From Candidatus Levybacteria bacterium RIFCSPHIGHO2_01_FULL_41_15 (GTDB lineage: Bacteria; Patescibacteriota; Microgenomatia; Levybacterales; UBA12049), in NCBI GenBank assembly GCA_001782165.1, contig MFNV01000005.1, positions 545 to 64,544 on the forward strand: 64,000 nucleotides of DNA, given 5' to 3'. The notes below the pieces were generated by a model, which was not told the DNA's origin, did not search any database, and saw only the letters and a list, made by a program, of their open reading frames with translations. Shown here one piece after another: positions 34,770 to 59,501 of this stretch. Numbering within the stretch: the stretch's first letter is position 1; each line of letters starts with the position of its first letter. The translations under genes and the position numbers were made by a program.

Positions 34770-34795
34770 CTGCCCCGCTTTTTGCGGGGTAGTTT
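34770..34795. terminator. Bidirectional rho-independent terminator-like hairpin between convergent genes
   Basis: CCCCGC-TTTTT-GCGGGG hairpin with T/A-rich flanks. It is placed between the stop of the 34391 gene (+) and the stop of the sortase gene (-). Confidence 0.45.
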
Positions 34796-35342
34796 ATTCT
34801 GTGGGTTTGGCAAAGACAAGAAGTCTTTGAAGAGATGTTCCTATGGGAACACAGGTCTGAAGTATTAACTGATCTTTCTTATTGTCTAATAAATAATCAA
34901 CCTCATTGGGCCAAACAGTTTTGGTTTCAAAAACCTCATATTGAAAACTTTTGCCGTTTCTTACTATATTAATCCTATCTCCTTTTCTAAGCTCTGGTAA
35001 TCTAAAAAATGCCTTATTATACCTTGTTATTCTCCAGGGAAGATCAGATGAGTGAGCAAATAGAAAGCTCGTTCCTTTTTCTCCCGGCAAAGATGTACCT
35101 TTTGCATGGGCGATCCCTTTCTCGAGTTTTTTCCTGTATTCTTTTTCATTAAATGGATCAACATTCTCCAAAACATTGTATCTGGCTTTGATTTGGGGAA
35201 TTTCGATGTAAAAAGAACTTACTGTTTTTGTTTCATAAGAAGGACTAAGATATAAAGCGATAATCGGATAATAAATGAATGCCAGTAATAAAAGAGAAAA
35301 CGCCATTAAGGCGTTTCCAATAAACTTTCTATATGGTTGCAT
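34794..35342 (-). CDS. Sortase family transpeptidase
   Basis: N-terminal TM anchor. FLFAHSS carries the catalytic His. DQLILQTCVP is the TLxTC catalytic Cys motif, followed by the conserved Arg region. It sits immediately downstream of an LPVTG protein. Confidence 0.7.
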   Translation of the reverse strand: MQPYRKFIGNALMAFSLLLLAFIYYPIIALYLSPSYETKTVSSFYIEIPQIKARYNVLENVDPFNEKEYRKKLEKGIAHAKGTSLPGEKGTSFLFAHSSDLPWRITRYNKAFFRLPELRKGDRINIVRNGKSFQYEVFETKTVWPNEVDYLLDNKKDQLILQTCVPIGTSLQRLLVFAKPTE

Positions 35343-36465
35343 AAAGAGGTGGGGATGGATCTGAACCAAAGCGCAAATACCATCCCGCAAGAAGCATTGT
35401 AAGACACAAAAGTGTCATTAGCAACAGCCAGTAATTACCTGTTACAGGGAGAACTCCTCCGATTGCCGCTCCCAAAACTTGTCCTGCTCCCTCAGAAACT
35501 TTGCCATCTCCGCCTCCTGAAGGAGACGGGGCACCTGGCGGCTGTACCGAAGGTCCTGGCGGACCTCCTGGTCCCGGTCCTGGCCCTCCCCCCGGAGGTG
35601 GAACAATCTCTTTCTCGCAACATAATTTAGCAAAAGATCCGTTAATATCTTCATTACCTATCTCTATGACACTTACAATATCCCCCGTAACAATAAGAAC
35701 TGCTCCGTTATTACCGTCTGCAGTATTTCTTCCCGTATTTGCGTTATTGACAGCATTATTATATATATAGGCAAAATTATTGTTATCATAATTCAAGTTG
35801 TTATCAAGCGAGAAATTGACAGAGTTTATTGACCCGTCGGCATTATTTAAAATACTAATATTTGTAGAATTCTGAGGGAATCCGTATTCAGCAAAACCAA
35901 AATTTATTTTTTTGTTTTTTATTATAGTTGCCAAAGTTATATTTCCGGTATCAATAGCAACATCTCCATTGTTATTGTTAGCCTGATTCTCTCCGGTGTT
36001 TGCATTGTTATATGCATTATTAACAATTACTGCCGAGTTGGACTGCGTAACATCAACATCATTTAAAATATCCAGATTAATACTGTTCGTTGAATCCGAA
36101 CCATTATTTTTTATATCAACAGACGTCTGGGATTCGCATTGCCCGCAAGGATCTTGCGCAAAGTTTGTATTAATATTTTCATTTGTAATTGAAGAGGTGC
36201 TTTCTATGTTTCCTGTGGTAATGTTTGCATCGCCGTTGTTTGAAGAAGTGGAATTTTCTCCCGTATTTGCATTTGTTTCTACATTATTATCTATTTCGGC
36301 ATTATTTGTCTGCTCAACAGTTGATGAAGAAGTATTGTTAATCTGAACATTGTTACTCGATCCTGCGCCGTTATTTGATACGGTAATGTCTTCTGCGAAA
36401 ACACCGGATACTGCAAACAGACCGGCCATCAAAAGTATCAAGGATGAAAATATTTTCCTTATCAT
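35329..36465 (-). CDS. Secreted Asn-rich repeat protein with a Pro/Gly-rich stalk and a C-terminal LPVTG sortase sorting signal
   Basis: Signal peptide MIRKIFSSLILLMAGLFAVSGVFA, with SD GGGGAGGA upstream of the ATG at 36465. Repeat modules as in the neighbouring genes. The C-terminus is PPPGGGPGPGPGGPPGP...GGVLPVTGNYWLLLMTLLCLTMLLAGWYLRFG. This is LPXTG plus a hydrophobic segment plus a basic residue. Confidence 0.6.
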   Translation of the reverse strand: MIRKIFSSLILLMAGLFAVSGVFAEDITVSNNGAGSSNNVQINNTSSSTVEQTNNAEIDNNVETNANTGENSTSSNNGDANITTGNIESTSSITNENINTNFAQDPCGQCESQTSVDIKNNGSDSTNSINLDILNDVDVTQSNSAVIVNNAYNNANTGENQANNNNGDVAIDTGNITLATIIKNKKINFGFAEYGFPQNSTNISILNNADGSINSVNFSLDNNLNYDNNNFAYIYNNAVNNANTGRNTADGNNGAVLIVTGDIVSVIEIGNEDINGSFAKLCCEKEIVPPPGGGPGPGPGGPPGPSVQPPGAPSPSGGGDGKVSEGAGQVLGAAIGGVLPVTGNYWLLLMTLLCLTMLLAGWYLRFGSDPSPPLYATI

Positions 36466-38618
36466 TTGATAATCCTCCCCATAAGTATTAATGCTTTTTT
36501 TCTTAAAATAAATCCTATTCCTAAGACCGGCAGTGCCAAAAACGCCCACGCCAGATTGATATCCACTTTCTTTTTAGAATTATCTTTCTCGGAACTATTT
36601 ACGCCTAACGTTTGGGTGTCTTGAGAATCTTGAGATGGTCCCGAAGCAGCTGCAAAAAGATTTCCGGCAGTCGCACCGGCCAAAACTCCGCCGACAAACG
36701 GAACTGAGTTTCCTGAAATTGCGGAATTTCCCGATCCTCCTCCCCCACCCGGAGAAGAAGATGGAGGATTAGAATCATTGCTTGGTAAACTTTCCGACTG
36801 AGGTGGCCCTCCTACCCCCGCTATATTATCATCATTGTCTTTTTGTGCTCCGGGTGTTACAAAATCCCCCATCCAGCTTCCGAAAACATTTACGAAAGTA
36901 ACGAGAAGTCTTCCTCCTACAATATTGTTGTTTACAAAATTAACTAAGTTTACAATTACTTTTGCATCCCCTGTTGTAATGTAACTGTCTCCTCCAGTAT
37001 TGTCATTTGCCGAATTTTTCCCTGTATTTGCTGATAAATATATATTGTTATTTACATCTGCATTATTTGTCTGATCTATGTGCTCTTTTGTACTTTGATA
37101 AACTTTTGCATCGTTGGTTGACTCGGAACCATTATTTGAATTAATTGCCGTTATTTCTCCATTTTCATCAACTGCAAATTCTGTTCCCTGTGATCCTGCA
37201 AACATTGCACCCTGTGGCGCTCCTACAATCTGCCCTATCCACTGCCCAGCTCTATTTATAATTACAAGCCACCAATTCCCGCCGACTATATTATTGTTTA
37301 CTATGTTTAATACCTGCGCAGTTACATCGGCATTCCCCGTTGTTATATAACTATCCCCGCCTGTATTTCCGGATGCTGAGTTTCCGCCCGTGTTTGCGGT
37401 CAATATCAGATTATTATCTATATCCGCAACATTTACTTGGTTAATTGTATCTATAACTATTTGATCCGAAGAAACATTATTGTCAGAATTTGAACCGTTT
37501 CCAGAGTTTATCAAAGTAGTGTCCCCTCCGCATGTCGCGCAAGCAAATGCAGATAGAGCCGACTCAGAAAGAATAATGTCTCCAATTAAGTCTCCGAAGA
37601 TATTAACAACCCCAAGTATTACATTTCCGGCAAGGTTATTATTTAAAAGTGTCAGAACATTTCCTGTAACTGATGCATCACCTGTTGTGACATATGAATC
37701 CCCACCTGTGTTACCTGACGCAGCGTTGTCTCCCGAGTCAGCCGTTAAGTAAAGATCATTGTTAACTGTACCATTATTAGCTTGATTCGTTGTGTTAGTG
37801 GTGTCTGAGTTTATAGTGGCATCATTATCAGAATTAGAACCATTATTGGAGTTTTGAGCAAGACCTGTAAATCCGTCGCATCCCGATACGCAACCGGCTC
37901 CAAAATCAAGTATGTAATCACCGGTGTGATCATCTACTATGTTAAACTCCGCGACTGTAACCCCATCGATGTTCGTATTGGCGGAGGTTATTATAGTCCC
38001 CGTTGTTGAAGCATCTCCCGTATTGATAAAGGAATCCCCTACATTATCAGACGCTGAATTTTGCCCTGAAACACTTGCTCCCGTAAGTCCATTTTGAATA
38101 CCCGCACTGTTTGATTGATCAGTTGTGCTGGTATCGGTAACTGTTGCAGAACTAGTGTTCGTGGATCCCGAACCATTTCCATCATTTACTATTCCGATTC
38201 CACCACTGGCGCAGCAGTCATCATTCCCTGCAAGATTTGAATTAGCAGTGGTGAAAATATTTCCATCACTATTTGCATCTCCGGTATCTATAAATGTGTC
38301 TCCAACATTACCATCTGATGATGTACCCCTGGAAACATCTGCCTCAGGATTACCTTCAGTGGATACGACGGGGTCATCCGGATTGCTATCGCTTTCCGGA
38401 ATTTCAGGAATTTCTTCCACCTCATTATTGCTACTGTTTTCCTCGGGTTGTTGCGGAGCTTCCTCAGGCACAGTTGCTGGGATTTCTTCGGTTTCATTTA
38501 TCTCCTCAACCTCCGCCGCTTCCGGGGCTTCAGAAGCCTCTGCAAAAACAGAAGAAGCTCCACCTAAGACAAGGTACAGTACCAAAAATATTGCCAGTAG
38601 TTTCCTTAAATTACTCAT
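36462..38618 (-). CDS. Large secreted protein (718 aa) built from repeated N/D/G/S-rich modules, with a C-terminal hydrophobic segment
   Basis: Signal peptide, then an acidic Glu/Pro-rich linker. Then come about 5 modules of type NGSNSDN...V.Q.N.A.V.N...L.A.TG.N.A.GNTGGDSY.TTG.A.V, each followed by a short hydrophobic stretch. The end is LAWAFLALPVLGIGFILRKKA. Confidence 0.55.
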   Translation of the reverse strand: MSNLRKLLAIFLVLYLVLGGASSVFAEASEAPEAAEVEEINETEEIPATVPEEAPQQPEENSSNNEVEEIPEIPESDSNPDDPVVSTEGNPEADVSRGTSSDGNVGDTFIDTGDANSDGNIFTTANSNLAGNDDCCASGGIGIVNDGNGSGSTNTSSATVTDTSTTDQSNSAGIQNGLTGASVSGQNSASDNVGDSFINTGDASTTGTIITSANTNIDGVTVAEFNIVDDHTGDYILDFGAGCVSGCDGFTGLAQNSNNGSNSDNDATINSDTTNTTNQANNGTVNNDLYLTADSGDNAASGNTGGDSYVTTGDASVTGNVLTLLNNNLAGNVILGVVNIFGDLIGDIILSESALSAFACATCGGDTTLINSGNGSNSDNNVSSDQIVIDTINQVNVADIDNNLILTANTGGNSASGNTGGDSYITTGNADVTAQVLNIVNNNIVGGNWWLVIINRAGQWIGQIVGAPQGAMFAGSQGTEFAVDENGEITAINSNNGSESTNDAKVYQSTKEHIDQTNNADVNNNIYLSANTGKNSANDNTGGDSYITTGDAKVIVNLVNFVNNNIVGGRLLVTFVNVFGSWMGDFVTPGAQKDNDDNIAGVGGPPQSESLPSNDSNPPSSSPGGGGGSGNSAISGNSVPFVGGVLAGATAGNLFAAASGPSQDSQDTQTLGVNSSEKDNSKKKVDINLAWAFLALPVLGIGFILRKKALILMGRIIK

Positions 38619-39980: not shown

Positions 39981-40157
39981 TTATGTTGTCACCTCCTCTC
40001 CTTTTTAGATTTCCTTTCCCCCCTCTTTTTTGAAAAAAAGGGAGAGGTTGCACTTTCTAATCCGTTTTTGTTTGAAACAAAAACGGAGGCTCCTTCATCC
40101 GATCCACCAATTAGCAGATCCGGTGAAAAAGCCTCCGTTTGCGGTCAGCTTGTTATA

Positions 40158-44509: not shown

Positions 44510-47500
44510 TTAAAGTCCTTCTTTCTTATGTCTTCTTCTGAGGAACCAAAAGAGGAAAATAGCAAAAATAATTACAAGTGCTGTTGCTGTCATTTTTTTC
44601 CATCCAAAACCTTTGTTTATTGTAATTAACGGTTTTTCTTCGGGCGCATTCTTTTCTTCTCCTAAAACTCCCTGGGTTGGCACCGGAGAAAGCTGCGCTT
44701 CAGGAGTTGTCTCTCCCAAAACTTCAGGCGCAAATCCGGTCGCAAGGGGCGAAATTAAAGCTCCCAAGACTTGGGGCACTCCGACAACATTTCCTGAACA
44801 ATCTTTAGATCCGCAACCCAAACCGTCCGATTGGCCATCTCCTCCGCCGCCTCCGCTAGTAGTAGCAGGACTGGTAGTCGTAACGCTCTTCTCATCGCCG
44901 ACTGCTTCAGGCGATCCATGGGAAACTGTTCTGTAAAAGTAAGTAGTTCCTGAGGTAAGTCCCGAAATATCAACCGAGTGAGAAGTAACCTTGGGATCGG
45001 CGTCTTCCTCGTCGGTTGAGTTGGCATATCCGTAATTTGGCGCTCCACCAAGTGATGGATGCGAAACAGAATCATATAGAACTCTTGAAGTAGCAGGGTC
45101 ATCTGTAATCCAGGTTATTGTGACTGATGTATCCGTCACAGAGCCTGATGTTTCATCGGATATCACCGGCGCAATGCCATACTCGGCCGTCAAGACGTCG
45201 CTGGGATTACCGGCGTTATCATAGGCAATTGCCTTAAGAGTCGTATCAACACCAATAGCAATTGGATCTGTGTATGGGGTTGATGAATTATCAGGTGTTG
45301 ATCCGTCTGTCGTGTAATAGATTCCTTCTAATCCTGTTCCACCGTCATCGTTGCTGGTTAGTGTTACTGATTGGTCGCTAAAGTAGTCGCCAGCTGCCGG
45401 ATCGGCAACAGGTATTAATGGGGGTGCCCCATCTGAGGTGGACCATTCTCCGTCTTCTAGTTCATTGCCGACCGCATCGTGAGTGCTTCTCGGGTCCAGG
45501 TCCCCACCACCTGAAGGAGTATAGGTAACAGTTGGAGTCGCTCCCGTATCAAAAGACTCCCCTTCGCTGAAGGTTAAAAGCAGTATGTTGTCATTCTCGC
45601 CTTCGCCTGTACCAATTGCCTCACCGCTGTAGGGATCGTCGACATCCCAGCCGTCAGGATTACCGGGATCTAACCTTGAATCGTCAATGTTTTCGGAGAA
45701 GGTTAGTTTGATAGCATCAATCTTGCCATTTCCATTTGTATCCTGAGTTTCGGCTGATTCCAGCGTCGGTGCGGTTGTATCGACTGTAAAGGGCGCCGAA
45801 TTAGAACCGAAATTGCCAGCCGCATCAAAGGCACCGACATAAAGTGTATGTTCCCCTTCACCGGGATAATCCATACCATTGGTAAACTCTGGCCCAAATA
45901 GGGTTTCGGCTAAAGAGTCGAAAAAGCCGTCGAGCGCCTCCAAGGGCTTGGCAAAGATAAAGTCTGGGTCGTCAACCGAAAAGATTGCCGAAACTATATT
46001 GGAAATGGCATCTACAGCATCTGCCAGAATCTGCGGCGGATGATTGGTTGGATCGGGTGATGCCGAAGGAGTGGAGACAAGCGGCGCGCTCACATCATAA
46101 GTGACGTACTCAACAACCGGGCTGTTTTCGGTGTTACCAGCCATGTCTGTCGCCTCAGCTTTAATGTCAAATGTTCCTTCGGTATCCGGAGTCCAGTTAA
46201 AAGACCACTCAAATGGATCGTTGTTCTGTTGAGAATCTGGAATTTCAATCCAGGGATTTTCTTCCTCCCCGGAAGTTCGGTAATAAAAATTGACATAATC
46301 AACGGTTGTAGCTGGTTCGTCTGTTGAGCTTCCGGAAATTTCAATTGGGATGTTCCAGAAACTTCCTTCTTCGGGAGAGTCAATTGTCGAAACTGGCGGG
46401 GTCGTGTCCGCTGTGTAATAAACCCGAACCGGAATCCAGTCAAGGAAAAAGTCGCGGCCGGCATTGGTCGAGTTCATCGTTGCCCGGACACGGAAATTTT
46501 CATTAGTGAACTCGTCCGCTGTCCATTCTCTATCCCAAGTATCTGCGGCACCTCCCAAAGAAGCCACGTGTTCCTTATTGGTTTCGGTAATGTCAGATTT
46601 TGCGCCAGTCCAATCGTCTCCACCGTTCCAAGACAGTTCAACATCCAAACTATTCTCCCCGCCTGTGGCGTCCAGACGCCAATCGGTCCTGACCTCAATG
46701 CCTCTAATTGTAGAGCCATCCGGAATCTCAAAGGGATTATAGTTATAGAAAATATGACTTTCGCCCGCTGCATTATTGGTGTGACTCGCTACAGAGCCTC
46801 CATCATCAAACGCACCTTCAGGATTATTTTCAAGGCCGTTACCACCGCTGGCTTCCTCTGCAATTGGGGATTTGTAATCGGTAGGCTGGTCGGAAGGCGC
46901 CGCAAAATCAACTATCAGCTGTGGACGTCTCAGCTCATTTCCCTGATCGCTTGATCTAAATTTACCTAATTTAGCAGTACCTGAATCCTCCGCTGAATCC
47001 CGAATTGCCCAGCCGTAATTTGCTAATTCATCGTTGACAAAAGCTTGGACATCGCCTGTGACATCCCACTGGCGCCAGACATTGTTTGAAGTACCGGTTG
47101 AAGTGGTGTCTGTGGCCGCGCCTGTATCAGCCGGCTGACTATTCCAGGCTAAGGTATCCTCATCCCATCCCTCAACGACTAGGCGGGCTTCATAATCTCT
47201 CGATGATGGAGGGGCATCGAACATAAACAGCCGCAAAGTCGCCTTGGTGATTTCAGAGCCGGCAGGAATCGCTGAAGTGTCAAATTTCACGAATGTCCGC
47301 TTGTTCTCATCTGTTTTACTTCTAACATGCAGCTCATCGCCGCCGCCCTTATTGGCATCGGCATTATTCTGTTCAGCCCAAGTGTCATCAATTGCCACAA
47401 GAACACCGTTTGCAATATCATCAGTGGCATCGACGGCGTTGTCGCCGTTGACATCGTTAACCAAAACGAAAACGGTGAAATGAGTAAGTCCTTTGATCGT

Positions 47501-48259
47501 TATGGTGTCAGTTGCAACTTCTTTTGGCTCGCCTAGCGTTTGGGCATTGCCAAGATCTTCTGTCGACTCGGCACTCTTTACAACTACCTCATCCTTATTA
47601 ACATTGGCAGGTACAGGCAAAGTCAGATTATACGCAAATGTGCCGTCTGCCATCGGCGAAGTGAATTCGTAAGCCGTGTCGGAAACTGCCGAAAGCTCTT
47701 CCTGTTGTTCGCTAGATAACTTGACTTCACTGACAATCAGTTTGTCCGAGGGGTCGGGTAATTTAGTAAAAGTAATTTTTACCTTATCGTTTTGAGGAGC
47801 ACTATAAGTCTGGCCTAAGACTACATTATTTATAGTAGTCGCCTTGCCGTCATCTGCTGTTTGCCATACTGCTGGAGCCAGTTGGGCGCTTACTGCTGAC
47901 TCCGGAGAATTCTCAATTGCACTTGGGGGAGAAAGATTATCAACTGTTGCCGGAGTTGGTGAGATAGCATCTTCAGAAATATCTGATGGAGGCTGCGAAA
48001 CTTCCTCTTTGGGCATTACCAAAACTTCCGGAGTTGCAACAGTAGAATCTTGTGCTGGTATTGGTGTTATATCCGAGGATGTAGGGCTTGCCGTCGGAGC
48101 TTCGGTAAGGACTGGACTATCCTGTACAACAGTTGGGACAGGAGATACTTCATCCTCAGCGAAAGCTTTCGGAGAAACAAAAAAATTAGCTCCTGTCGAT
48201 TGGATTATAATCGACAAAAGAGTAACTCCTACTAAAAATTTTTTGATTTTGGACTGCAT
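44510..48259 (-). CDS. Giant (1249 aa) secreted cell-surface protein with Ig-like/cadherin-like beta-sandwich repeats and a C-terminal TM anchor; adhesin-like
   Basis: Signal peptide. Repeated D-x-AGN-x-S motifs (TDMAGNTENSP, FDAAGNFGSNSAPFTVDTTAPT, YDNAGNPSDV). A dockerin/EF-hand-like segment DVNGDNAVDATDD. C-terminus: KGFGWKKMTATALVIIFAIFLFWFLRRRHKKEGL. GC content is visibly higher than the surrounding DNA. Confidence 0.55.
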   Translation of the reverse strand: MQSKIKKFLVGVTLLSIIIQSTGANFFVSPKAFAEDEVSPVPTVVQDSPVLTEAPTASPTSSDITPIPAQDSTVATPEVLVMPKEEVSQPPSDISEDAISPTPATVDNLSPPSAIENSPESAVSAQLAPAVWQTADDGKATTINNVVLGQTYSAPQNDKVKITFTKLPDPSDKLIVSEVKLSSEQQEELSAVSDTAYEFTSPMADGTFAYNLTLPVPANVNKDEVVVKSAESTEDLGNAQTLGEPKEVATDTITIKGLTHFTVFVLVNDVNGDNAVDATDDIANGVLVAIDDTWAEQNNADANKGGGDELHVRSKTDENKRTFVKFDTSAIPAGSEITKATLRLFMFDAPPSSRDYEARLVVEGWDEDTLAWNSQPADTGAATDTTSTGTSNNVWRQWDVTGDVQAFVNDELANYGWAIRDSAEDSGTAKLGKFRSSDQGNELRRPQLIVDFAAPSDQPTDYKSPIAEEASGGNGLENNPEGAFDDGGSVASHTNNAAGESHIFYNYNPFEIPDGSTIRGIEVRTDWRLDATGGENSLDVELSWNGGDDWTGAKSDITETNKEHVASLGGAADTWDREWTADEFTNENFRVRATMNSTNAGRDFFLDWIPVRVYYTADTTPPVSTIDSPEEGSFWNIPIEISGSSTDEPATTVDYVNFYYRTSGEEENPWIEIPDSQQNNDPFEWSFNWTPDTEGTFDIKAEATDMAGNTENSPVVEYVTYDVSAPLVSTPSASPDPTNHPPQILADAVDAISNIVSAIFSVDDPDFIFAKPLEALDGFFDSLAETLFGPEFTNGMDYPGEGEHTLYVGAFDAAGNFGSNSAPFTVDTTAPTLESAETQDTNGNGKIDAIKLTFSENIDDSRLDPGNPDGWDVDDPYSGEAIGTGEGENDNILLLTFSEGESFDTGATPTVTYTPSGGGDLDPRSTHDAVGNELEDGEWSTSDGAPPLIPVADPAAGDYFSDQSVTLTSNDDGGTGLEGIYYTTDGSTPDNSSTPYTDPIAIGVDTTLKAIAYDNAGNPSDVLTAEYGIAPVISDETSGSVTDTSVTITWITDDPATSRVLYDSVSHPSLGGAPNYGYANSTDEEDADPKVTSHSVDISGLTSGTTYFYRTVSHGSPEAVGDEKSVTTTSPATTSGGGGGDGQSDGLGCGSKDCSGNVVGVPQVLGALISPLATGFAPEVLGETTPEAQLSPVPTQGVLGEEKNAPEEKPLITINKGFGWKKMTATALVIIFAIFLFWFLRRRHKKEGL

Positions 48260-51990: not shown

Positions 51991-53319
51991 TTAGTCCTTC
52001 ACCCTTCTTATATCAGCGCCTAACAAATTTAGTCTTTTTTCAAATTGCTCATAACCTCTATCAAGATGCTCAACTCCAAATATTATACTTTTCCCTCTTG
52101 CTGCCAAAGATGCTAAAACCAGCGTTGCTCCTGCTCTAAGGTCTGAAATATTTATTGCAGCATTATGAAGTTTTATTGGGCCTATTATTTTTGCAGCATG
52201 TTTATATTCAGGCCTATTATCTTCATAGTTAAAGTTATAAAATTTTTCAGGATTTTTTACTTTGGGGTTAAAAAGCTCAATTTTAGAACCCATCTTTTGA
52301 AGTTCTTGAATATAGGAGAATCTGTTCTCGTAGACTGTTTCGTGAATAATGGATGTCCCTTCAGTCTGGGTCATAAGAATAAGCCACGGTCCCTGCCAAT
52401 CAGTCATAAAACCTGGATAGAAAGACGTAGTAATATTGGTAGGCTTTAACCGATTTTTATAAAAAAACCTTATTCCGTTTTTTTGTATTTCTATTCCTCC
52501 CCCTGCTTTCAAAAGCATTTTTAAAAACTCATCAAGACCTCTTGTGGTAATATCTTTTATTTTAACATCCCCCTTGGTAATTATTGCCGCAACAGCAAGG
52601 GTAACTGTCTCATTTCTGTCAGGCGGAATAGCAAATTTAACTCCGTGAAGCTTCTTAACTCCGTTTATTACAATCTCCCTTTTTGAAACTCTTTTTATCG
52701 AAGCTCCCATTTTGTTAAGAAGGTTTATAAGATCATCTATTTCAGGTTCTTCCGCAGCATTCTTAAGAACTGTTTTTCCTTTTACCAAAACTGAGGAAAG
52801 CATTAATGTTTCCGTACCGGTGTGGGTATTCTTGTCAAACTTATAAACTATCGGCCGGAGTTTATTTTTTACTCTAAAATAGAAATACCCATCGTCGCTA
52901 TCATAAACTGCATTTGTTCCCATTTTTTCAATTCCTTTAATAATTCTATCTATTGGTCTTGCTCCGATTCTGCAGCCTCCTGGATTTGGAATTTCTGCTT
53001 TTCCAACTCTTGAAAGAAGAGGAGCCATAAATAGAAAAGAGGTGCGAACAAGGACAGCTTTATCCAAAAGAACCCTGGTCTTTTTTATTTTATCTACCTT
53101 TATAATTACCCTGTGATCTTCGATTTTTACTTTTCCCCCAAGATCTTTAATAATATCAGCCATAACATAAAGATCTGAAATAAGAGGTATATTTTCTATT
53201 ACGACCTCCTCATCTGTAAGACAGGCAGCAACAAAAGCCTTAAGAGCCATATTTTTAGAGCCTGACACTTTTATTTCGCCTTTTAATGTTTTTCCTCCTG
53301 TCACAATAAATTGCTCCAT
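51991..53319 (-). CDS. murA: UDP-N-acetylglucosamine 1-carboxyvinyltransferase
   Basis: KVSGSKNMALKAFVAACL is the EPT N-terminus. PGGCRIGARPIDRIIKG carries the active-site Cys. Confidence 0.9.
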   Translation of the reverse strand: MEQFIVTGGKTLKGEIKVSGSKNMALKAFVAACLTDEEVVIENIPLISDLYVMADIIKDLGGKVKIEDHRVIIKVDKIKKTRVLLDKAVLVRTSFLFMAPLLSRVGKAEIPNPGGCRIGARPIDRIIKGIEKMGTNAVYDSDDGYFYFRVKNKLRPIVYKFDKNTHTGTETLMLSSVLVKGKTVLKNAAEEPEIDDLINLLNKMGASIKRVSKREIVINGVKKLHGVKFAIPPDRNETVTLAVAAIITKGDVKIKDITTRGLDEFLKMLLKAGGGIEIQKNGIRFFYKNRLKPTNITTSFYPGFMTDWQGPWLILMTQTEGTSIIHETVYENRFSYIQELQKMGSKIELFNPKVKNPEKFYNFNYEDNRPEYKHAAKIIGPIKLHNAAINISDLRAGATLVLASLAARGKSIIFGVEHLDRGYEQFEKRLNLLGADIRRVKD

Positions 53320-53320
53320 A

Positions 53321-53360
53321 TGGTTTCTAGTCTTTAGTCTTTAGTCTTTAGTCTTTAGTC
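53321..53360. repeat. 7-bp tandem repeat (AGTCTTT x ~5.5) spanning the murC stop codon
   Basis: The sequence tagtctttagtctttagtctttagtctttagtctttcgc is directly visible. On the minus strand it encodes the MurC C-terminus RLKTKD* followed by RLKTKD*. Confidence 0.8.
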
Positions 53361-54769
53361 TTTAGTCTTTCGCTTATTTTATACACGTCTCCTGCTCCCA
53401 TCGTAATAACAATAAACCTCTCATCAAACTCTTTTTTATCGATATATTCTACCACAGAAGAAAGTTTAGGAAAAAAGAGAACATTGTTATGAATAAGGCT
53501 GATTTTTTTAGAAAGCAAATCTGAGGAAATAGTTTTGTCAGGTTCTTCCCGGGAAGAAGGATATATATCAGTAAGTACAACATAATCAGCATCTGAAAAA
53601 GAACTGACAAATTCTGAAAAAAACGTTTTGGTTCGGGAATAAGTATGAGGCTGAAATATGCATACGATTCTTTTTCCCGGGTAACTCTGCCGCAGGGCCT
53701 TTAGGGTTTTTCTTATTTCTGTAGGATGATGGGCATAATCATCAAATAAAAGAGCGCCGGATTCCAATCTTCCCATAAACTCAAACCTCCTTTTTGACCC
53801 TTTATAGCTGCTAATTGCCTTTTTGATTTTTTCTGAAGAAAAACCAAGCTCAATACAGGAAGCTACAGCTCCTAATCCATTTAAGGCATTAAATTCTCCC
53901 ATAACTTTAAGAGAAAATTCCCCCAGAGAGGTTCCCTTAAAACTTGCCCAAAAATAAACTTCTTTTTCCCGTACATGTACCTTATCAATAACATAATCGT
54001 TTAAAGGGGAGAAGCCATAAGTAACCTTGTTTCCTGAAAATTCCTGAATAAGTTTTTTGTTTTGTGGGTCATCTCTAGATAAAACAAGCACTCGGTCTTT
54101 AGGAAGCTGGTCTGCAAAGGCCAAAAAATTATTTCTCAATTGATTCTGATCTTTATAAATATCAGGGTGGTCAAATTCTATGTTTGTAAAAACTGCAAGC
54201 TGAGGGTGCTGCCATAAAAACTTGGGAGTTTGATCAAACTCAGGATCAGTAGCATATTCATCTGCCTCTGAAACAAAAAAATTTCCTTTTCCAAAATGAC
54301 CAGGAAGCCCAAGAGAAGGAATACTGCCTGTACCTATAATATATGAGGGATCGGCTGAAAGTTCATTTAAAATTGTCGCAATCATTGCTGTAACCGTAGT
54401 CTTGCCGTGAGACCCGGCTACAGAAACTCCCAGAAACTTCCTTTCGAAAATCTCTCCCTTCATAAATTCTCCCACTGCCTGTCCCTGCGTCCATACTTCT
54501 ATACCTTTTTTTCTCGCCTTTATAACTTCTGCATTCTTAAACCCTCCATGTGCTCCTGTTGCTATAACAAGATCAGGATCCTGAATATTTTTTTCGGAAA
54601 ATCTCTCAAAAACCCGTATACCTGATTCCTCAAGAGCATCATCTGTTATAAAAACTTGCGGAATGTCCGATCCCGTAACTTCGAATCCTCCCTCTTTTGA
54701 GATTATCGCAAGGGGGGTCATACCAACTCCCTTAATTCCGACAAAATGGATTTTTTTAATTTTTTTCAT
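53348..54769 (-). CDS. murC: UDP-N-acetylmuramate--L-alanine ligase
   Basis: IHFVGIKGVGMTPLA is the MurC N-terminal Rossmann motif. GSHGKTTVTAMIA is the P-loop. C-terminus: ITMGAGDVYKI. Confidence 0.8.
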   Translation of the reverse strand: MKKIKKIHFVGIKGVGMTPLAIISKEGGFEVTGSDIPQVFITDDALEESGIRVFERFSEKNIQDPDLVIATGAHGGFKNAEVIKARKKGIEVWTQGQAVGEFMKGEIFERKFLGVSVAGSHGKTTVTAMIATILNELSADPSYIIGTGSIPSLGLPGHFGKGNFFVSEADEYATDPEFDQTPKFLWQHPQLAVFTNIEFDHPDIYKDQNQLRNNFLAFADQLPKDRVLVLSRDDPQNKKLIQEFSGNKVTYGFSPLNDYVIDKVHVREKEVYFWASFKGTSLGEFSLKVMGEFNALNGLGAVASCIELGFSSEKIKKAISSYKGSKRRFEFMGRLESGALLFDDYAHHPTEIRKTLKALRQSYPGKRIVCIFQPHTYSRTKTFFSEFVSSFSDADYVVLTDIYPSSREEPDKTISSDLLSKKISLIHNNVLFFPKLSSVVEYIDKKEFDERFIVITMGAGDVYKISERLKTKD

Positions 54770-56048
54770 CTAATCTTGCCTCTATGGCTTTTTTTACTGC
54801 TTTATATTCATCCCAAGGCTCTTCTCCGCGTCCATAGTTCATTGACTTCTCATGGGCCTTTCCGGTAATTATTACCAAATCTCCTTTCTTTGTCATTGCA
54901 ATTGCTGTATTGATTGCCTCTTGTCTATCTGGAATTTTGATTAATGTTTTATTCTGTATTCTGTATTCTGAATTCTGAATTCCAGAAGTTATGTCATTCA
55001 TAATGTTTTCAATGTTTTCCGATCGGGGATCTTCTGCGGTAACTATAACAATATCGCTAAGTCGACTTGAAATTTTACCCATCTTGGGTCTTTTCAATTT
55101 ATCTCTTTCCCCTGCGCAGCCGAATACATGAATAATCCTTCCTCTTATCTGCCCCCTTAAATAACTTAAGACTTGTTTAAACGAGTTTGGTGTATGCGCA
55201 AAATCTATCATAACCCTAAAACCTTTGTTATATACAAGATCCTGTCTTCCCAGAGGCGGTTCAAAAGATTCAACAGCCCTTTTTATAAGACTGTCTTTTA
55301 TCCCGAGTAATTTTGAAACTGTAACAGAGGCAAGTATGTTGTACCTGTTAAACTGACCTGCAATCTGGGACTCCATTTGAAAATTTTCCGGATTAACATC
55401 CGAGGCTTTTGACATTCCGTAAGTCACAGTCCTTCGAAATCCTGAAGCAGTTTTTTTAAGCTCCGATTTGACTAATGGGTAAGATTGATCATCTTTATTA
55501 ACCACGGCATTTGTAGAATTTCTAAGAAGTTTAAGTTTTGCCAAAACATAATTCTCGTAGGTCTTGTGATAATCAAGATGTTCCCATGTTACATTTGTTA
55601 TTACTCCGATATCAAAACTTATTCCAAAAACTCTGAATTGATCAAGAGAATGGGAAGTTACCTCCAAAACCAAGTATTTTTTCTTTCCTTTATTTTTCCC
55701 ATTTGCCCTGCCTGCCGCCCGCCTGCTCGCCCCGGTTCGTCGAAGCGGGCCGGACGGGAAGGGCAGGCAGGCCATTTTAATAAATTTCTGAAGAGCAAAA
55801 GGAGAAGGAGTTGTAACATGGAAAGGAAGAGGGTAGTTTTTTCCGTTTATCGAAGCTCCCACAGAGGAAATCATAGAAACATCTTTCCCACTGGTTCTAA
55901 GAATATGATAAATCAGAGAAACCGTAGTTGTTTTCCCATCGGTTCCGGTTACTCCGATAGCAGTCAGGTTTCTTGAGGGAAAACCATACCGTATATTGGC
56001 CGCAATTGCCATAATAAGATGATACAAATTCTTTATTCTTTGCCACAT
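54756..56048 (-). CDS. murE: Mur ligase family protein, MurE-like, lacking the usual N-terminal domain
   Basis: IGVTGTDGKTTT is the P-loop. LEVTSHSLDQ matches the MurE EVSSH motif. C-terminus ITGKAHE is the GKGHE motif. Only ~30 aa precede the P-loop. The gene contains an in-frame GC-rich insertion (element A). Confidence 0.6.
   Translation of the reverse strand: MWQRIKNLYHLIMAIAANIRYGFPSRNLTAIGVTGTDGKTTTVSLIYHILRTSGKDVSMISSVGASINGKNYPLPFHVTTPSPFALQKFIKMACLPFPSGPLRRTGASRRAAGRANGKNKGKKKYLVLEVTSHSLDQFRVFGISFDIGVITNVTWEHLDYHKTYENYVLAKLKLLRNSTNAVVNKDDQSYPLVKSELKKTASGFRRTVTYGMSKASDVNPENFQMESQIAGQFNRYNILASVTVSKLLGIKDSLIKRAVESFEPPLGRQDLVYNKGFRVMIDFAHTPNSFKQVLSYLRGQIRGRIIHVFGCAGERDKLKRPKMGKISSRLSDIVIVTAEDPRSENIENIMNDITSGIQNSEYRIQNKTLIKIPDRQEAINTAIAMTKKGDLVIITGKAHEKSMNYGRGEEPWDEYKAVKKAIEARLDEKN
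55699..55778. repeat. GC-rich palindromic mini-element, copy A, inserted in frame inside the murE-like gene
   Basis: ccatttGCCCTGCCTGCCGCCCGCCTGCTCGCCCCGGTTCGTCGAAGCGGGCCGGACGGGAAGGGCAGGCAGGCCatttt. It is about 80% GC in a ~30% GC gene. Terminal inverted repeats are CCTGCCTGCC and GGCAGGCAGG. It is flanked by a CCATTT direct repeat. It translates as ...SGPLRRTGASRRAAGRANGK... Confidence 0.7.
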
Positions 56049-56082
56049 AGGTTCGTATTATACCTTTTTTTTGTATTCTTAT

Positions 56083-57765
56083 CTATTCACCGGAGGGAGA
56101 AATACCATAATACAGAAGAAGATCCCTTGCGATATCAAAAAAAACTGGAGCTGCTGTTTCGGATCCGTAAATAGAAGTCGTCGGTTTATCTAATATTACA
56201 ATCAGTGCAAATTTTGGATTATCGGCGGGAGCAAAACCGATGAAAGATGCAATAGTTTTGTGGGGATCATAGTGTCCTTCAATAGGTATTGAGGCAGTTC
56301 CCGTTTTGCCCGCAATTCTATAACCTTTAAGTCTTGTCCAGGATGCCTCGCCTTTGTTAACTGCGTTGACTAATATTTCGGTCATAATCTTTGCTGTCTG
56401 TGAAGATACTGTTCTTCCCAGTGTCTTCAGAGGAATTTTTGCACCCTCACCATCGGGAGACTGAACTCTGGCAACCACATGCGGCTCCATTCTCACTCCC
56501 TTATTGGCAACTGCAGAGAAAGCGCCAAGAAGCTGAATTGCCGTAACACTAATCCCTTGACCAAAACCTTTAGTAGCAAGATCAACCGGATACCATAAAT
56601 TTTCTTCAGGAAGAGGTTTTGAAACTTCTCCCTGAAGATCTATCCCGGTCGGTTCTCCAATTCCAAATTTTCCTAAATACTTTATCATATTATCTGTCCC
56701 AAGCCTTTGAGCTACATATACCATTCCGACATTATCAGAGTACCTTATTATATCAACCATATTGATATCCTCATGGTATTTGTTGTTCCATGTATGGATC
56801 TCATAGCCTCCAATAGAAACTGGCCCACCACATATAAGGCACTTCATTGAGGGTGTAACAAGTTTTAAATCTAAGGCCGAGGACATGACAACGGGCTTGA
56901 AGGTAGATCCAGGCTCGTACAAACTTGATATAAAAGGATTCTTATATAGTTCGGGTTCAAAATCCTTGTAATTATCTGGCGAATAAGATGGAAAAGAAGA
57001 TATGGCAAGAATATTTCCGGTTGACGGTTCCATCACTCCTGCCATTCCGCCTGAAGCTCCGTAGAATTCAATTGCCTTCTTTAATTTTTCCTCAACTATA
57101 AACTGAATGGTTCTATTTATATTTAAGACAAGCGTGCTTCCTTTTGTATTCTCGGTATCTTTATTTACCCTAGAAAGAATAGGCCTTCCCAGAGCGTCAA
57201 TCACCTCAACCGTTATTTCTTCCTTGCCGCGCAATAATCTGTCATAATATCCTTCGAGACCAAAATATCCTTGATCTTCTCCAGTCTCGGTTTTCCCTAC
57301 AAAACCCAAAAGATGCGAAGACAACGAGGCCTCCGGATAATATCTTTCAAATCTTTTCTCAAATCCAAGCCCAGGAATTTTTAGCTTTTCAATTTCTCTT
57401 TTTTTCTCAGGATCAACGCCGCTCTTTAAAGGAACCCAGAATTTATCAAGAGATAGCTGCGAGCTCACCGAAGCGTGGGAAATTTGAAGTTTTGAAGATA
57501 AAATTTCTGAAATTTTTTCTCTGTCTTTTATTTCTTTTGGATTTGCATATACGAGGTAGGAAATTTTATTCGTTGCGACAGGGAAGCCGTCGGATGTTTT
57601 TATCTCTCCCCTTTCAGGTAAATTCTTAATCACACTTGCGTATTGAGATTTTCCAAGAAGAGAAAGTTCCTGACCTTTTACTGCCTGCCAGTAAAAAAGC
57701 CTTGCAATTATTGCAGCAAAAAACAGAATTACAATTAATAAAATCAGACGATATCTCCATATCAT
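56083..57765 (-). CDS. ftsI: Penicillin-binding protein 2B/FtsI-type transpeptidase
   Basis: STFKP is the SxxK motif. YSDN is the SxN motif. KTGTA is the KTG motif. N-terminal TM plus a dimerisation domain. Confidence 0.85.
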   Translation of the reverse strand: MIWRYRLILLIVILFFAAIIARLFYWQAVKGQELSLLGKSQYASVIKNLPERGEIKTSDGFPVATNKISYLVYANPKEIKDREKISEILSSKLQISHASVSSQLSLDKFWVPLKSGVDPEKKREIEKLKIPGLGFEKRFERYYPEASLSSHLLGFVGKTETGEDQGYFGLEGYYDRLLRGKEEITVEVIDALGRPILSRVNKDTENTKGSTLVLNINRTIQFIVEEKLKKAIEFYGASGGMAGVMEPSTGNILAISSFPSYSPDNYKDFEPELYKNPFISSLYEPGSTFKPVVMSSALDLKLVTPSMKCLICGGPVSIGGYEIHTWNNKYHEDINMVDIIRYSDNVGMVYVAQRLGTDNMIKYLGKFGIGEPTGIDLQGEVSKPLPEENLWYPVDLATKGFGQGISVTAIQLLGAFSAVANKGVRMEPHVVARVQSPDGEGAKIPLKTLGRTVSSQTAKIMTEILVNAVNKGEASWTRLKGYRIAGKTGTASIPIEGHYDPHKTIASFIGFAPADNPKFALIVILDKPTTSIYGSETAAPVFFDIARDLLLYYGISPSGE

Positions 57766-57808
57766 ACATTCGATAAACTCAATATGATCCTGAGCTTACG
57801 TCGAAGGG

Positions 57809-58093
57809 TCATTGTTTAATTGCAAGGGGAATAGGCTTGTTAAAAGTGAAATTTCCTTTCCCTTCAACAAAACCCAAGAGCGAGGCTTGCGAGGAAATAT
57901 AATTTAAAGAAGAAAGTTTAAGAAGTTCTTTCTTAAGTCTTGAGTTTTCCAATCGAACAGAATCAAGTTCAGTTTGAATTTTACCAAGCTTAAGCCCTGC
58001 AATTGAGAGATTATTTAAGACAGCAGTCCTTGTCACGATAAGCCCCATGACTGATAAAATTATTAACGCTATAAGAATTTGATGTTTTTTCAT
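57809..58093 (-). CDS. ftsL: Cell division protein FtsL-like (single-TM, coiled coil)
   Basis: 94 aa with an N-terminal TM and a leucine-zipper-like segment. It sits between rsmH and ftsI. Confidence 0.55.
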   Translation of the reverse strand: MKKHQILIALIILSVMGLIVTRTAVLNNLSIAGLKLGKIQTELDSVRLENSRLKKELLKLSSLNYISSQASLLGFVEGKGNFTFNKPIPLAIKQ

Positions 58094-58095
58094 AG

Positions 58096-58992
58096 TTATA
58101 ACCTTTCAAAAACTCTAAGCTTAGCACTTCTACTTCTTTTATTTTGTTTTACTTCTTCAAACGTAGGCAAAACAGGTTTTTTGGTTATTATTCTTCCCAT
58201 ATTTTTATTTTCAAAATCTTCAAAACTGTCTTTTACAATTCTGTCCTCCAAGGAATGAAAACTTATTACTTCAAGTCTTCCCCCTTTTTTTAAAAGTCTT
58301 AAGGTTTTGGGAAGAGCTCCCTTAAGATTGTTTAATTCATCATTTACAGCAATTCTTAAGGCCTGAAAAACTCTTTTGCCTATAAGCGCCCTCTTAAAGG
58401 CAGACAACCTCTGATTTTTGCCGGATAATTCCTCCAATGTCTTCATTAAATCATCGGTCGTCTCGATTCTCTTTATTCTACGGGCCCTGACAATACGACC
58501 AGAAACGACCCGAGCAAAACGCTCCTGACCCAATTTAGAAAATAATTCATAAAGTTCATTTTTTGATAAAACACTTATTAGATCTGCTGCTTTAACTGAC
58601 AGGGATTTTCCCATCCTCATATCAAGCGGACCTTTTTTTTGATAACTAAAACCCCTTTGTGATTGATCTATCTGAAAACTTGAAACTCCAAGATCAAATA
58701 TTATTCCCGAAACTTTGTCAAAATTATTTAAATGTGCAATTCTGTCAATGTCCTTAAAATTTCCGAGAACAGGTACTAATTTAAAATTAAAAATTTCAAA
58801 TTTAAAATTTTCTTTGATAAACCGTATTGCTTCTTCATCTATATCTATTCCCAAAACTCTTCCGCCCAACTTGAGTATTTCCTTTGTATGCCCTCCTCCG
58901 CCAAGCGTCGCATCTATATACTTCTTTCCTTTTCCAACATTAAGAAACTCTAAGATCTCTTTTAAAAGAACAGGCGTATGGAATCGATTCAT
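58096..58992 (-). CDS. rsmH: 16S rRNA (cytosine1402-N4)-methyltransferase RsmH/MraW
   Basis: HTPVLLKEILEFL...YIDATLGGGGHT is the canonical RsmH N-terminus. Confidence 0.9.
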   Translation of the reverse strand: MNRFHTPVLLKEILEFLNVGKGKKYIDATLGGGGHTKEILKLGGRVLGIDIDEEAIRFIKENFKFEIFNFKLVPVLGNFKDIDRIAHLNNFDKVSGIIFDLGVSSFQIDQSQRGFSYQKKGPLDMRMGKSLSVKAADLISVLSKNELYELFSKLGQERFARVVSGRIVRARRIKRIETTDDLMKTLEELSGKNQRLSAFKRALIGKRVFQALRIAVNDELNNLKGALPKTLRLLKKGGRLEVISFHSLEDRIVKDSFEDFENKNMGRIITKKPVLPTFEEVKQNKRSRSAKLRVFERL

Positions 58993-58994
58993 TG

Positions 58995-59068
58995 CCCTTA
59001 CTCTTTCTTCCCTGCCTTGTCGGCAGGCAGGCCTGCCTTGCTCGACTCGCTGCGAAGTGGGCCCAAAG
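58995..59068. repeat. GC-rich palindromic mini-element, copy B, forming the 3' end of mraZ
   Basis: CCCTGCCTTGTCGGCAGGCAGGCCTGCCTTGCTCGACTCGCTGCGAAGTGGGCC shares the GGCAGGCAGGCC and CTGCTCG..CG..GCGAAG.GGGCC blocks with copy A. It encodes the MraZ tail ...SLGPLRSESSKAGLPADKAGKKE. Confidence 0.65.
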
Positions 59069-59501
59069 AATGGTCATCTTTTTCAATAAGTCTTTGTGAT
59101 ATTCTGTCAATATTCTTCTCAAGATTCTCTCTATATTCAATCCATCTCTTTTTATCCCAAATCTCAACGTATCGCGAAAGCCCTAGGAATATAATCTCGT
59201 CTTCAATTTTTGCAAATTCTCGTAGGTAAGAAGGTATAACAAACCTTCCTTTATTATCGAGCGCAACATTGCTTGCTCCTCCGAGGAGAAATCGCTGGGT
59301 TTCCCGTGTTTCCGACTGGATAAAGGGTTTACCCTCTGTTCCTTCCAGAAGCTGCTTCCAGTTTTTTTCCGATACGACAATGAGCGAGTTTTCATACCCT
59401 AAAGTTATAATTAGCTTGTCACCTAAGACTTCCCTAAATTTTTTAGGGAAGGCGATTCTGTTTTTTGCGCCGATTCTACCTTCGTATTGACCGATAAGCA
59501 T
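58998..59501 (-). CDS. mraZ: Transcriptional regulator MraZ
   Basis: MLIGQYEGRIGAKNRIAFPKKFRE is the first SpoVT/AbrB-like repeat. NVALDNKGRFVIPSYLRE is the second. First gene of the dcw operon. Confidence 0.85.
   Translation of the reverse strand: MLIGQYEGRIGAKNRIAFPKKFREVLGDKLIITLGYENSLIVVSEKNWKQLLEGTEGKPFIQSETRETQRFLLGGASNVALDNKGRFVIPSYLREFAKIEDEIIFLGLSRYVEIWDKKRWIEYRENLEKNIDRISQRLIEKDDHSLGPLRSESSKAGLPADKAGKKE

Follow-up and report, generated by a model that had tools for sequence, protein, structure and literature searches.

A very small, GC-rich and imperfectly palindromic DNA element lies within two genes of the division and cell wall (dcw) cluster of a Levybacteria-like member of the Patescibacteria, a bacterium of groundwater type with a small genome, and its anatomy, its relatives in other bacteria and its possible mode of spread are described here. 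The DNA analyzed is a stretch of 64,000 nt (64 kb) of contig MFNV01000005.1, the whole of which is referred to as the window. The dcw cluster occupies 51.9-59.5 kb of its minus strand, as judged from the open reading frame (ORF) list, Pfam domains and structure matches. The mean GC content of the window is 36.5%, and not the ~30% assumed in an earlier sequence-only reading of this DNA. That reading did correctly pick out two GC-rich islands, one in the murE-like gene (55690-55782, peak 80% GC) and one in mraZ (59003-59073, peak 67% GC), each of which contains an insert of 63 nt. They are two of just three islands formed in the 64 kb by 60-nt segments with at least 65% GC, and in a motif search of the window the arm motif GGCAGGCAGGCC and its complement were found at these two islands only. 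The genes of the cluster and the parts of the two inserts, termed copies A and B, are listed below, where R1 is the covariance model of the element family described in a later section.

51991-53319, minus strand: murA
53348-54769, minus strand: murC
54756-56048, minus strand: murE-like Mur ligase, 430 amino acids (ORF; Pfam Mur_ligase_M in two stretches plus Mur_ligase_C)
55706-55716: outer left arm of copy A, CCCTGCCTGCC on the plus strand (inverted repeat I2, 92% complementary; motif search)
55708-55770, minus strand: copy A, an in-frame insertion of 63 nt (21 codons) encoding CLPFPSGPLRRTGASRRAAGR (a gap in the relatives L001 and L003; boundaries ambiguous by ~2 nt)
55717-55762, minus strand: inner unit of copy A with diverged arms CCTTCCCGTCC and GGCGGGC (R1, 44.1 bits, E=4e-9, model positions 1-46)
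55762-55772: outer right arm of copy A, GGCAGGCAGGC on the plus strand (inverted repeat and motif search)
56083-57765, minus strand: ftsI
57809-58093, minus strand: ftsL-like gene
58096-58992, minus strand: rsmH
58998-59501, minus strand: mraZ, 167 amino acids (ORF; the Pfam MraZ match stops at residue 139)
59010-59072, minus strand: copy B, total insert of 63 nt forming the last 21 codons of mraZ in frame
59010-59030, minus strand: copy B part 2, a mini-palindrome of 21 nt made of the arms alone, CTGCCTGCCGACAAGGCAGGG, which encodes LPADKAG (in L001 at the same site, not in L003)
59031-59072, minus strand: copy B part 1, a decayed 42-nt family element encoding HSLGPLRSESSKAG (absent from L001; R1, 20.4 bits, E=0.0066 over 59032-59073)

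Copy A in the murE-like gene

The murE-like protein has its best solved-structure (fold) matches among MurE enzymes, and its closest homologues, which carry Levybacteria or Patescibacteria names, are mostly 399-409 residues long (roughly 400-409 residues for ~100 MurE homologues). The window protein has 430 residues compared with 408-409 in the nearest homologues because of copy A, which, on comparison with syntenic relatives (L001-L004, L125, L126 and L163), is a single gap-free insertion of 63 nt relative to the orthologues in L001 and L003. Since these nearest orthologues are without the 63 nt, the insertion is lineage-specific, as had been suspected. The predicted protein reads ..KMACLPFPSGPLR.. 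across the insert junction, and the protein alignment at the site (KMA, 21 inserted residues, ANGKNKGKK, compared with KMAAKRSNSNGKK) fits a plain insertion of 21 codons. A CCATTT direct repeat beside copy A had been put forward as a target-site duplication, and this had to be rejected: the orthologues read AAAACG or other sequence at the left copy of the repeat, the protein alignment is best explained by 21 inserted codons without any duplicated flank, and clean filled and empty sites of the same family elsewhere differ without duplication.

The proposal that the insert falls in an inter-domain region was likewise abandoned. It lies inside the middle domain and not in a linker between domains, because the Pfam Mur_ligase_M match is split in two around it. 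In the AlphaFold model of the window protein, which has a mean predicted local distance difference test score (pLDDT) of 83, values below 50 are confined to residues 99-120, which are the insert, and to residues 399-409. The insert sits between a helix (83-94) and a strand (124-129), and it is predicted to form a disordered surface loop. In this lineage MurE-like ligases are short (~400-409 residues), and in the window protein Pfam recognizes the middle and C-terminal Mur ligase domains only, with no N-terminal Mur_ligase match, unlike in the adjacent MurC.

Copy A folds into a strong hairpin on both strands (−46.3 kcal/mol on the plus and −50.9 kcal/mol on the minus strand, z = −3.6 and −4.9) and is free of stop codons in all six frames. 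Its outer arms are the same as those of a widespread mini-palindrome of 20-21 nt, and copy A is nested, with a family element of about 42-46 nt lying within a 21-nt arms-only palindrome (CCTGCCTGCC/GGCAGGCAGG arms).

Copy B at the end of mraZ

Copy B follows the last Pfam domain of MraZ, a protein of 167 residues in the window and of 146-155 residues in its orthologues. Terminal inverted repeats had been attributed to both copies. In copy B, part 1 has lost its left arm and has two mismatches in its inner stem, and the whole is poor as a single palindrome (z = −1.3 and −0.9). The mini-palindrome at 59010-59030 is the sole CCTGCC..GGCAGG hairpin of the window. All six frames of copy B are free of stop codons, and it is a composite and decayed structure and not a full palindrome.

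Among relatives the same site is empty in L003, contains the 21-nt hairpin CTGCCTGCCGGCAAGGCAGGG alone in L001, and in the window contains the 21-nt hairpin with 42 further bases upstream of it, such that the MraZ insertion is also lineage-specific, with nothing present in L003 and the 42 nt lacking in L001. In L163 (11000-11043) the mraZ tail instead carries an intact family unit (57 bits), giving DLPAGPLRSEASKAGKKGDE and then the stop codon, and the tails of L163 and L001, which have ~80% DNA identity, differ by a 21-nt core. The mraZ site is thus seen in four states: without an insert, with the mini-palindrome, with a full unit, and with a decayed unit beside the mini-palindrome. It has been hit or remodelled repeatedly.

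A family of near-identical copies in metagenomes

The direct similarity between copies A and B is modest. They have a 12-mer in common, which is equalled in 6 of 2000 shuffles, and their cores match at 20 of 28 positions, which is equalled in 50 of 5000 shuffles. A pattern of the positions common to the two copies (GGCCCRCTTCG..CGAGCA..GGCAGG) was used to scan metagenome contigs, and at least 119 stretches matched. Matches in GC-rich contigs look like chance, and the ~85 in contigs of 33-50% GC represent one coherent element; the counts given for the family rest on the matches listed, from which 78 distinct copies were used. The scan gave at least 78 distinct copies beyond the window, at unrelated loci and inside many unrelated genes, with sharp ends and unrelated flanks. 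The unit is 42-48 nt long and has the form CCTGCCTGCC-GGCCCGCTTCG-(loop of 3, 6 or 9 nt)-CGAGGCGAGCA(A)-GGCAGG, where the loop variants include CCG, CAG, CCGAAT and ACTCAG and where loop length changes in steps of three. The left arm is conserved in the copies although it was outside the search pattern. The family consensus folds with ~−29 to −33 kcal/mol, and the means for the two strands are −26.9 (sense) and −28.3 kcal/mol (antisense); folding specific to one strand through G-U wobble, to which the alignment had pointed, was rejected, as both strands fold about equally.

The covariance model R1 was built from the 78 distinct metagenome copies with the window left out. Applied to the window without filters, it recognizes the inner part of copy A (55717-55762, minus strand, 44.1 bits, E=4e-9) and also copy B (59032-59073, minus strand, 20.4 bits, E=0.007), and hence the conserved core that A and B were thought to share is borne out both by the 20 of 28 matching positions and by an independent model. 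No third convincing copy was found by R1 in the 64 kb, where the remaining hits are arm-level matches at the same islands and weak matches with E≥2.4. Both islands are very probably insertions that belong to a single family of tiny mobile DNA elements, which are rich in GC, imperfectly palindromic and without coding capacity of their own. If the segments were instead non-mobile and made in place, as low-complexity linkers or by template switching or GC-biased repair, then the variable length of the MurE loop and of the MraZ tail among orthologues would be understandable, as would the presence of two copies only in 64 kb. However, the same 42-48-nt sequence is present at no fewer than 78 unrelated loci in several phyla, its presence and absence between close relatives are clean and sharp-ended, and a window-free model recognizes copy A at the E value given above. 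An origin in place is largely refuted and retains a very small probability.

Host lineages of the copies, from exact protein look-up and from homologue names, include Levybacteria (GW2011_GWA2_40_16), Berkelbacteria, another Patescibacteria bacterium and a Melioribacteraceae metagenome-assembled genome (MAG). A further host has a GlmS with ~80% identity to proteins of Margulisbacteria/Saganbacteria. By these assignments the element is nearly identical in at least three phyla. Near-identity across many sequencing projects, and the fact that library preparation can create hairpins, would also be compatible with a chimeric hairpin that is an artefact of assembly or of the library. On the other hand, the same loci were recovered from independent samples (L135/L227/L207, L146/L228 and L178/L183), insert-bearing proteins have been deposited in NCBI from MAGs of different studies, and inserts within genes always consist of whole codons. 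Moreover, a mutated copy (B) and loop variants exist, and one site has several states across relatives. An artefact is scarcely credible.

Precise insertion without target duplication

The manner of insertion is evident from two pairs of closely related genes in which one member is filled and the other is empty. In L155 the GlmS protein has 14 residues more than the 87%-identical homologue in L248, and in the DNA this corresponds to a 42-nt insertion with no repeated flank. Similarly, a Melioribacteraceae hydrolase in L136 has 15 residues more at the site than its 90%-identical homologue in L249, where the empty site reads GAAAA-ATGG and the filled site reads GAAAA-CCTGCC...45 nt...GGCAGG-ATGG, an insertion of exactly 45 nt. 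In these two clean pairs the inserted DNA starts and stops exactly with the palindrome, and no sequence is duplicated. What is observed, then, is that a conserved hairpin sequence has been inserted precisely, in whole codons and without duplication, in distant bacteria, where its sites are unrelated genes and spacers. Separately, the copy in L192 has a 12-nt flanking repeat, TTGCGGATTTCG.

The mini-palindrome and nested insertions

The arms of the element also occur alone, as a mini-palindrome of 20-21 nt (CCTGCCTGCC/GGCAGGCAGG). In the 620 kb of family loci the mini-palindrome CCTGCCTGCCGGCAGGCAGG has ~20 further occurrences, about one per 30 kb, where none are expected. An arms-only scan of reference genomes gave many simple CCTGCCTGCCGGCAGGCAGG palindromes in many phyla, which were mostly intergenic and of which almost none had the core. 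Since the flanks of 14 of the 78 full copies form strong hairpins around the element, and since copy A is nested, the tips of palindromes are suggested to be favoured entry points. Examples of a unit inside a second, different palindromic insert are the ORFs of L148 (Tgt) and L235 (RluD), with flanking peptides such as ..SRGSASDRSDL.. before and ..GRDCFAPQSKARNDN.. after the unit.

Copies inside genes

A copy was taken to be inside an ORF when at least 120 nt were open on both sides of it, which applies to 24 of the 81 low-GC copies (11 in sense and 13 in antisense orientation). Approximately 40 of the 81 look intergenic and the remainder are near gene ends. The host proteins are conserved ones of common kinds, namely SecA, DnaG, topoisomerase I, GlmS, sigma-54 (RpoN), MurE, MiaA, GalE, Tgt, RluD, IF2, RecR and a P-type ATPase. 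All insert lengths relative to empty sites are multiples of three (21, 42, 42, 45 and 63 nt), and 52 of 78 copies are stop-free in six frames, compared with 28% of shuffles of the same composition and <1% of random 44-mers from the window. This excess is in part a matter of shared ancestry. Even so, being made of whole codons and usually free of stops is what allows the element to survive in gene-dense genomes, and the same properties are suggestive of translation of the inserts.

Both window copies are in frame, as first noted, and they share not only the frame but also the residues GPLR in their peptides; the inserted peptide is basic and, according to the MurE model, exposed. It could be supposed from this that an Arg/Gly/Pro-rich linear motif has been selected in MurE and MraZ. 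Yet across the family the element is read in several frames of both strands, giving unrelated predicted peptides (LPAGPLRR.., PACRPASP.., CLPARFA.., LPARLDSAKR.. and PACSPRGEAG..), many copies are intergenic, and copy B is drifting from the consensus. Selection for the peptide itself is thus highly improbable.

Family copies are also found in other dcw clusters, at the mraZ tail in L163 (11000-11043), in murE of L192 at a different site (5031-5076) and downstream of ftsI in L153 (2985-3030). Recurrence in dcw clusters at three of ~80 loci, together with the two copies in the window, may be more than chance. This distribution would be explained if the hairpins were cis-acting regulators of the dcw operon at the level of RNA or DNA, for which coding is a side constraint. 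They might, for example, attenuate or terminate transcription within the operon, influence RNase action or stability, or bind protein as a cruciform. In keeping with such a role, the two window copies are both in sense orientation in one operon and only 3.3 kb apart, and T runs follow several intergenic copies. However, copies within ORFs are antisense as often as they are sense and are in unrelated genes, there is no T run after copy A or copy B, the stem of copy B is lost, and the nearest relatives manage without the murE insert. In addition, both strands fold about equally, which together with the equal use of the two orientations in genes argues against a strand-specific RNA role. Nor is there a match to a known RNA family in Rfam 15, with which the window gives tRNA only and ten loci with consensus copies give one chance microRNA match far below threshold. 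A regulatory function in cis is improbable.

Many Levybacteria MurE proteins carry other, unrelated inserts at the same loop and at three further sites, and the MurE loop is a recurrent acceptor of inserts. At the same loop the MurE gene of L125 (9158-10669), another Levybacteria-like contig, has a different insert of 45% GC, and the 180-nt tract as extracted is an almost perfect nested palindrome (−78 kcal/mol); the C-terminus of this MurE has an additional hairpin-coding extension of 87 nt (−41 kcal/mol). A loop of GlmS is an acceptor in like manner: another GC-rich in-frame palindrome is present in glmS of L001 (16397-16440) at the same loop as the family copy of L155, and in L125 (16893-17013) there are two tandem ~60-nt copies of a GC-rich palindrome in a different region of GlmS.

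Other features of the window

The third GC island (35483-35621, up to 75% GC) is a Gly/Pro-coding tract that is unrelated to the element. It is inside an ORF (35329-36549, minus strand) that has no Pfam match and that is adjoined by a sortase gene (34794-35390, minus strand), and by eye the tract is of Gly/Pro-rich low complexity and not palindromic. A minus-strand ORF of 1249 residues (44510-48259) with CBM96, Fn3-associated, CHB_HEX_C and Ig-like domains is situated in a stretch of 48-49% GC; it is a compositional outlier and possibly encodes a horizontally acquired surface protein. An inverted repeat at 40081-40140, with 24-nt arms that are 83% complementary, is located between two minus-strand ORFs, is terminator-like and is also unrelated to the element.

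Discussion

Full-text literature searches turned up neither an account of the element nor one of in-frame palindromes in the Candidate Phyla Radiation. We tentatively propose, as a possibility that is still the less probable outcome, that it is an undescribed "micro-transposon" of 42-48 nt with a minimal form of 21 nt. It would be adapted to the genes of compact genomes by consisting of whole codons, by loops that change in 3-nt steps and by being stop-free in six frames, and it would move horizontally between Patescibacteria, Margulisbacteriota and Ignavibacteriota, insert without duplication and with a preference for the tips of palindromes, and be driven by an unlinked enzyme or vector. On the main and very probable reading, in which both islands are insertions of a mobile family, an enzyme supplied in trans would move the element, probably as a single-stranded hairpin, and insertion would take place preferentially at the tips of existing palindromes. 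A selective filter would then operate in compact genomes such that only in-frame, tolerated and stop-free copies survive, and the survivors, which would be neutral and of no benefit to the host, would decay under AT-biased mutation.

Several results weigh against this main reading. The flanks of 78 copies contain no repeat of fixed length and no conserved target motif, where movement of the IS200/IS605 type would predict a target. Direct repeats of at least 5 nt (5-14 nt) are present near the ends of 19 of the 78 copies compared with 6 of 78 in a chimeric control, a weak excess which is difficult to accommodate in a mechanism that is strictly free of duplication. Within 3 kb of the copies there is no recurrent gene family, neither a linked gene nor a transposase is evident there, no mobilizing enzyme was found, and there is no transposase among the ten window proteins that were scanned. 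Full units are sparse, as 541 kb around 87 loci hold the seed copies and one further partial copy, and near-identity across phyla at such low copy number is puzzling. A carrier was also sought, and phage and plasmids were rejected as candidates: there was no match to phage records, and the plasmid matches and two IMG/VR matches are chance matches in GC-rich DNA. Near-identity across phyla at low copy number calls for frequent horizontal delivery or a common source.

The HUH/Y1 transposases, among them the transposases associated with repetitive extragenic palindromic sequences (REPs), termed RAYTs, and those of IS200/IS605, are the nearest precedent for insertion without target duplication. 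A RAYT or an IS200/IS605-like TnpA is, by analogy, a candidate for the enzyme that would mobilize the element, but a doubtful one because neither a conserved target nor a linked gene was seen. In comparison with non-autonomous IS200/IS605-type (HUH) derivatives (PATE-like), which insert immediately 3' of a conserved target of 4-5 nt, the absence of duplication matches, while such a target is not seen in the 78 flanks.

Among characterized systems the element most readily recalls the Rickettsia palindromic elements (RPEs), as the sequence-only reading had proposed. RPEs (RPE-1 to RPE-10) are in-frame palindromes that are viewed as the selfish DNA of a reduced genome (Ogata et al., 2000, 2002; summarized in PMC10969869 and PMC3733652), and they are ~100-150 bp long, occur in tens of copies per genome and are confined to Rickettsia (PMC10969869). 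Like them, the element has no coding capacity of its own, is in frame in unrelated housekeeping genes in a lineage-specific manner, is compatible with the protein fold, is also intergenic, and forms a stable hairpin (−46/−51 kcal/mol for copy A). Unlike RPEs, its units are 42-48 nt long (21 nt in the mini form and 63 nt in the window composites), which is outside the RPE length range, and the full units are sparse in the DNA sampled, near-identical in at least three phyla and GC-rich in AT-rich hosts. The resemblance is a functional one, and the family is set beside the RPEs by its behaviour and not by its sequence.

Some REPs provide a second comparison. Intragenic REPs tagged with GTAG/CGTC are mobilized by RAYT tyrosine transposases (Di Nocera et al., 2013; PMC3733652), and some REPs in Opitutus, Thauera and others act like RPEs inside genes (PMC10969869; PMC3733652). 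The element resembles REPs and their hairpin-forming doublets (REPINs) in being a short GC-rich stem-loop that is sometimes intragenic, where the REPs encode 20-30 amino acids, and in forming dimers or nested structures. In contrast to REPs, it has no terminal GTAG/CGTC, as its ends are CCTGCC/GGCAGG in the 78 aligned copies and CGTC is present only in the loop of copy A; no RAYT gene was seen within 3 kb of the copies; its full units are of low copy number in the DNA sampled, without the bursts of classical REPs or RPEs; ~30% of copies are in ORFs; and it is shared across phyla where REPs are usually species-specific. Bacterial miniature transposable elements with inverted repeats (MITEs), including Correia/NEMIS, ERIC, RUP and BOX, have been reviewed (PMC10969869). 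They share with the element a non-autonomous nature, terminal inverted repeats and the possibility of in-frame fusions with host ORFs, but they are 70-300 bp long, DDE-derived and accompanied by target-site duplications, whereas the element has 42-48 nt and no such duplication in the two clean pairs. Lacking both the GTAG/CGTC tag and a duplicated target, the element belongs neither to the tagged REPs nor to the MITEs of DDE type.

Two further systems are of interest. The PARCELs are dyad-symmetric coding DNA with a patchy distribution across distant microbes that has been attributed to horizontal transfer (PMC2996958, published in 2010). They differ in that they consist of a 25-residue domain repeated in tandem, within ORFs whose function is unknown, whereas the element is found as single small insertions in conserved enzymes.

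The GC clusters, double-hairpin elements and byp elements of fungal mitochondria are likewise short GC-rich palindromes in AT-rich compact genomes that encode no enzyme. They are sometimes within coding sequence, but they are organellar and lineage-restricted, and byp elements are skipped by the ribosome. Unlike byp, the whole-codon, stop-free inserts described here suggest translation.

These findings would extend the range of in-frame selfish palindromes, which are best known from Rickettsia and more sparsely as intragenic REPs, so as to include the Candidate Phyla Radiation and uncultivated bacteria of at least two further phyla. They pose the puzzle of how a near-invariant sequence of 45 nt, with no linked enzyme and in few copies, gets into the essential genes of lineages that are far apart, and they provide a tractable case for the mobilization of hairpin DNA without target duplication. 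For those working with MAGs, such inserts inflate or distort protein alignments, domain calls and orthologue lengths. At the same time, they show which surface loops and tails of conserved enzymes can accommodate an insertion, and they are recent presence/absence markers for population genomics.

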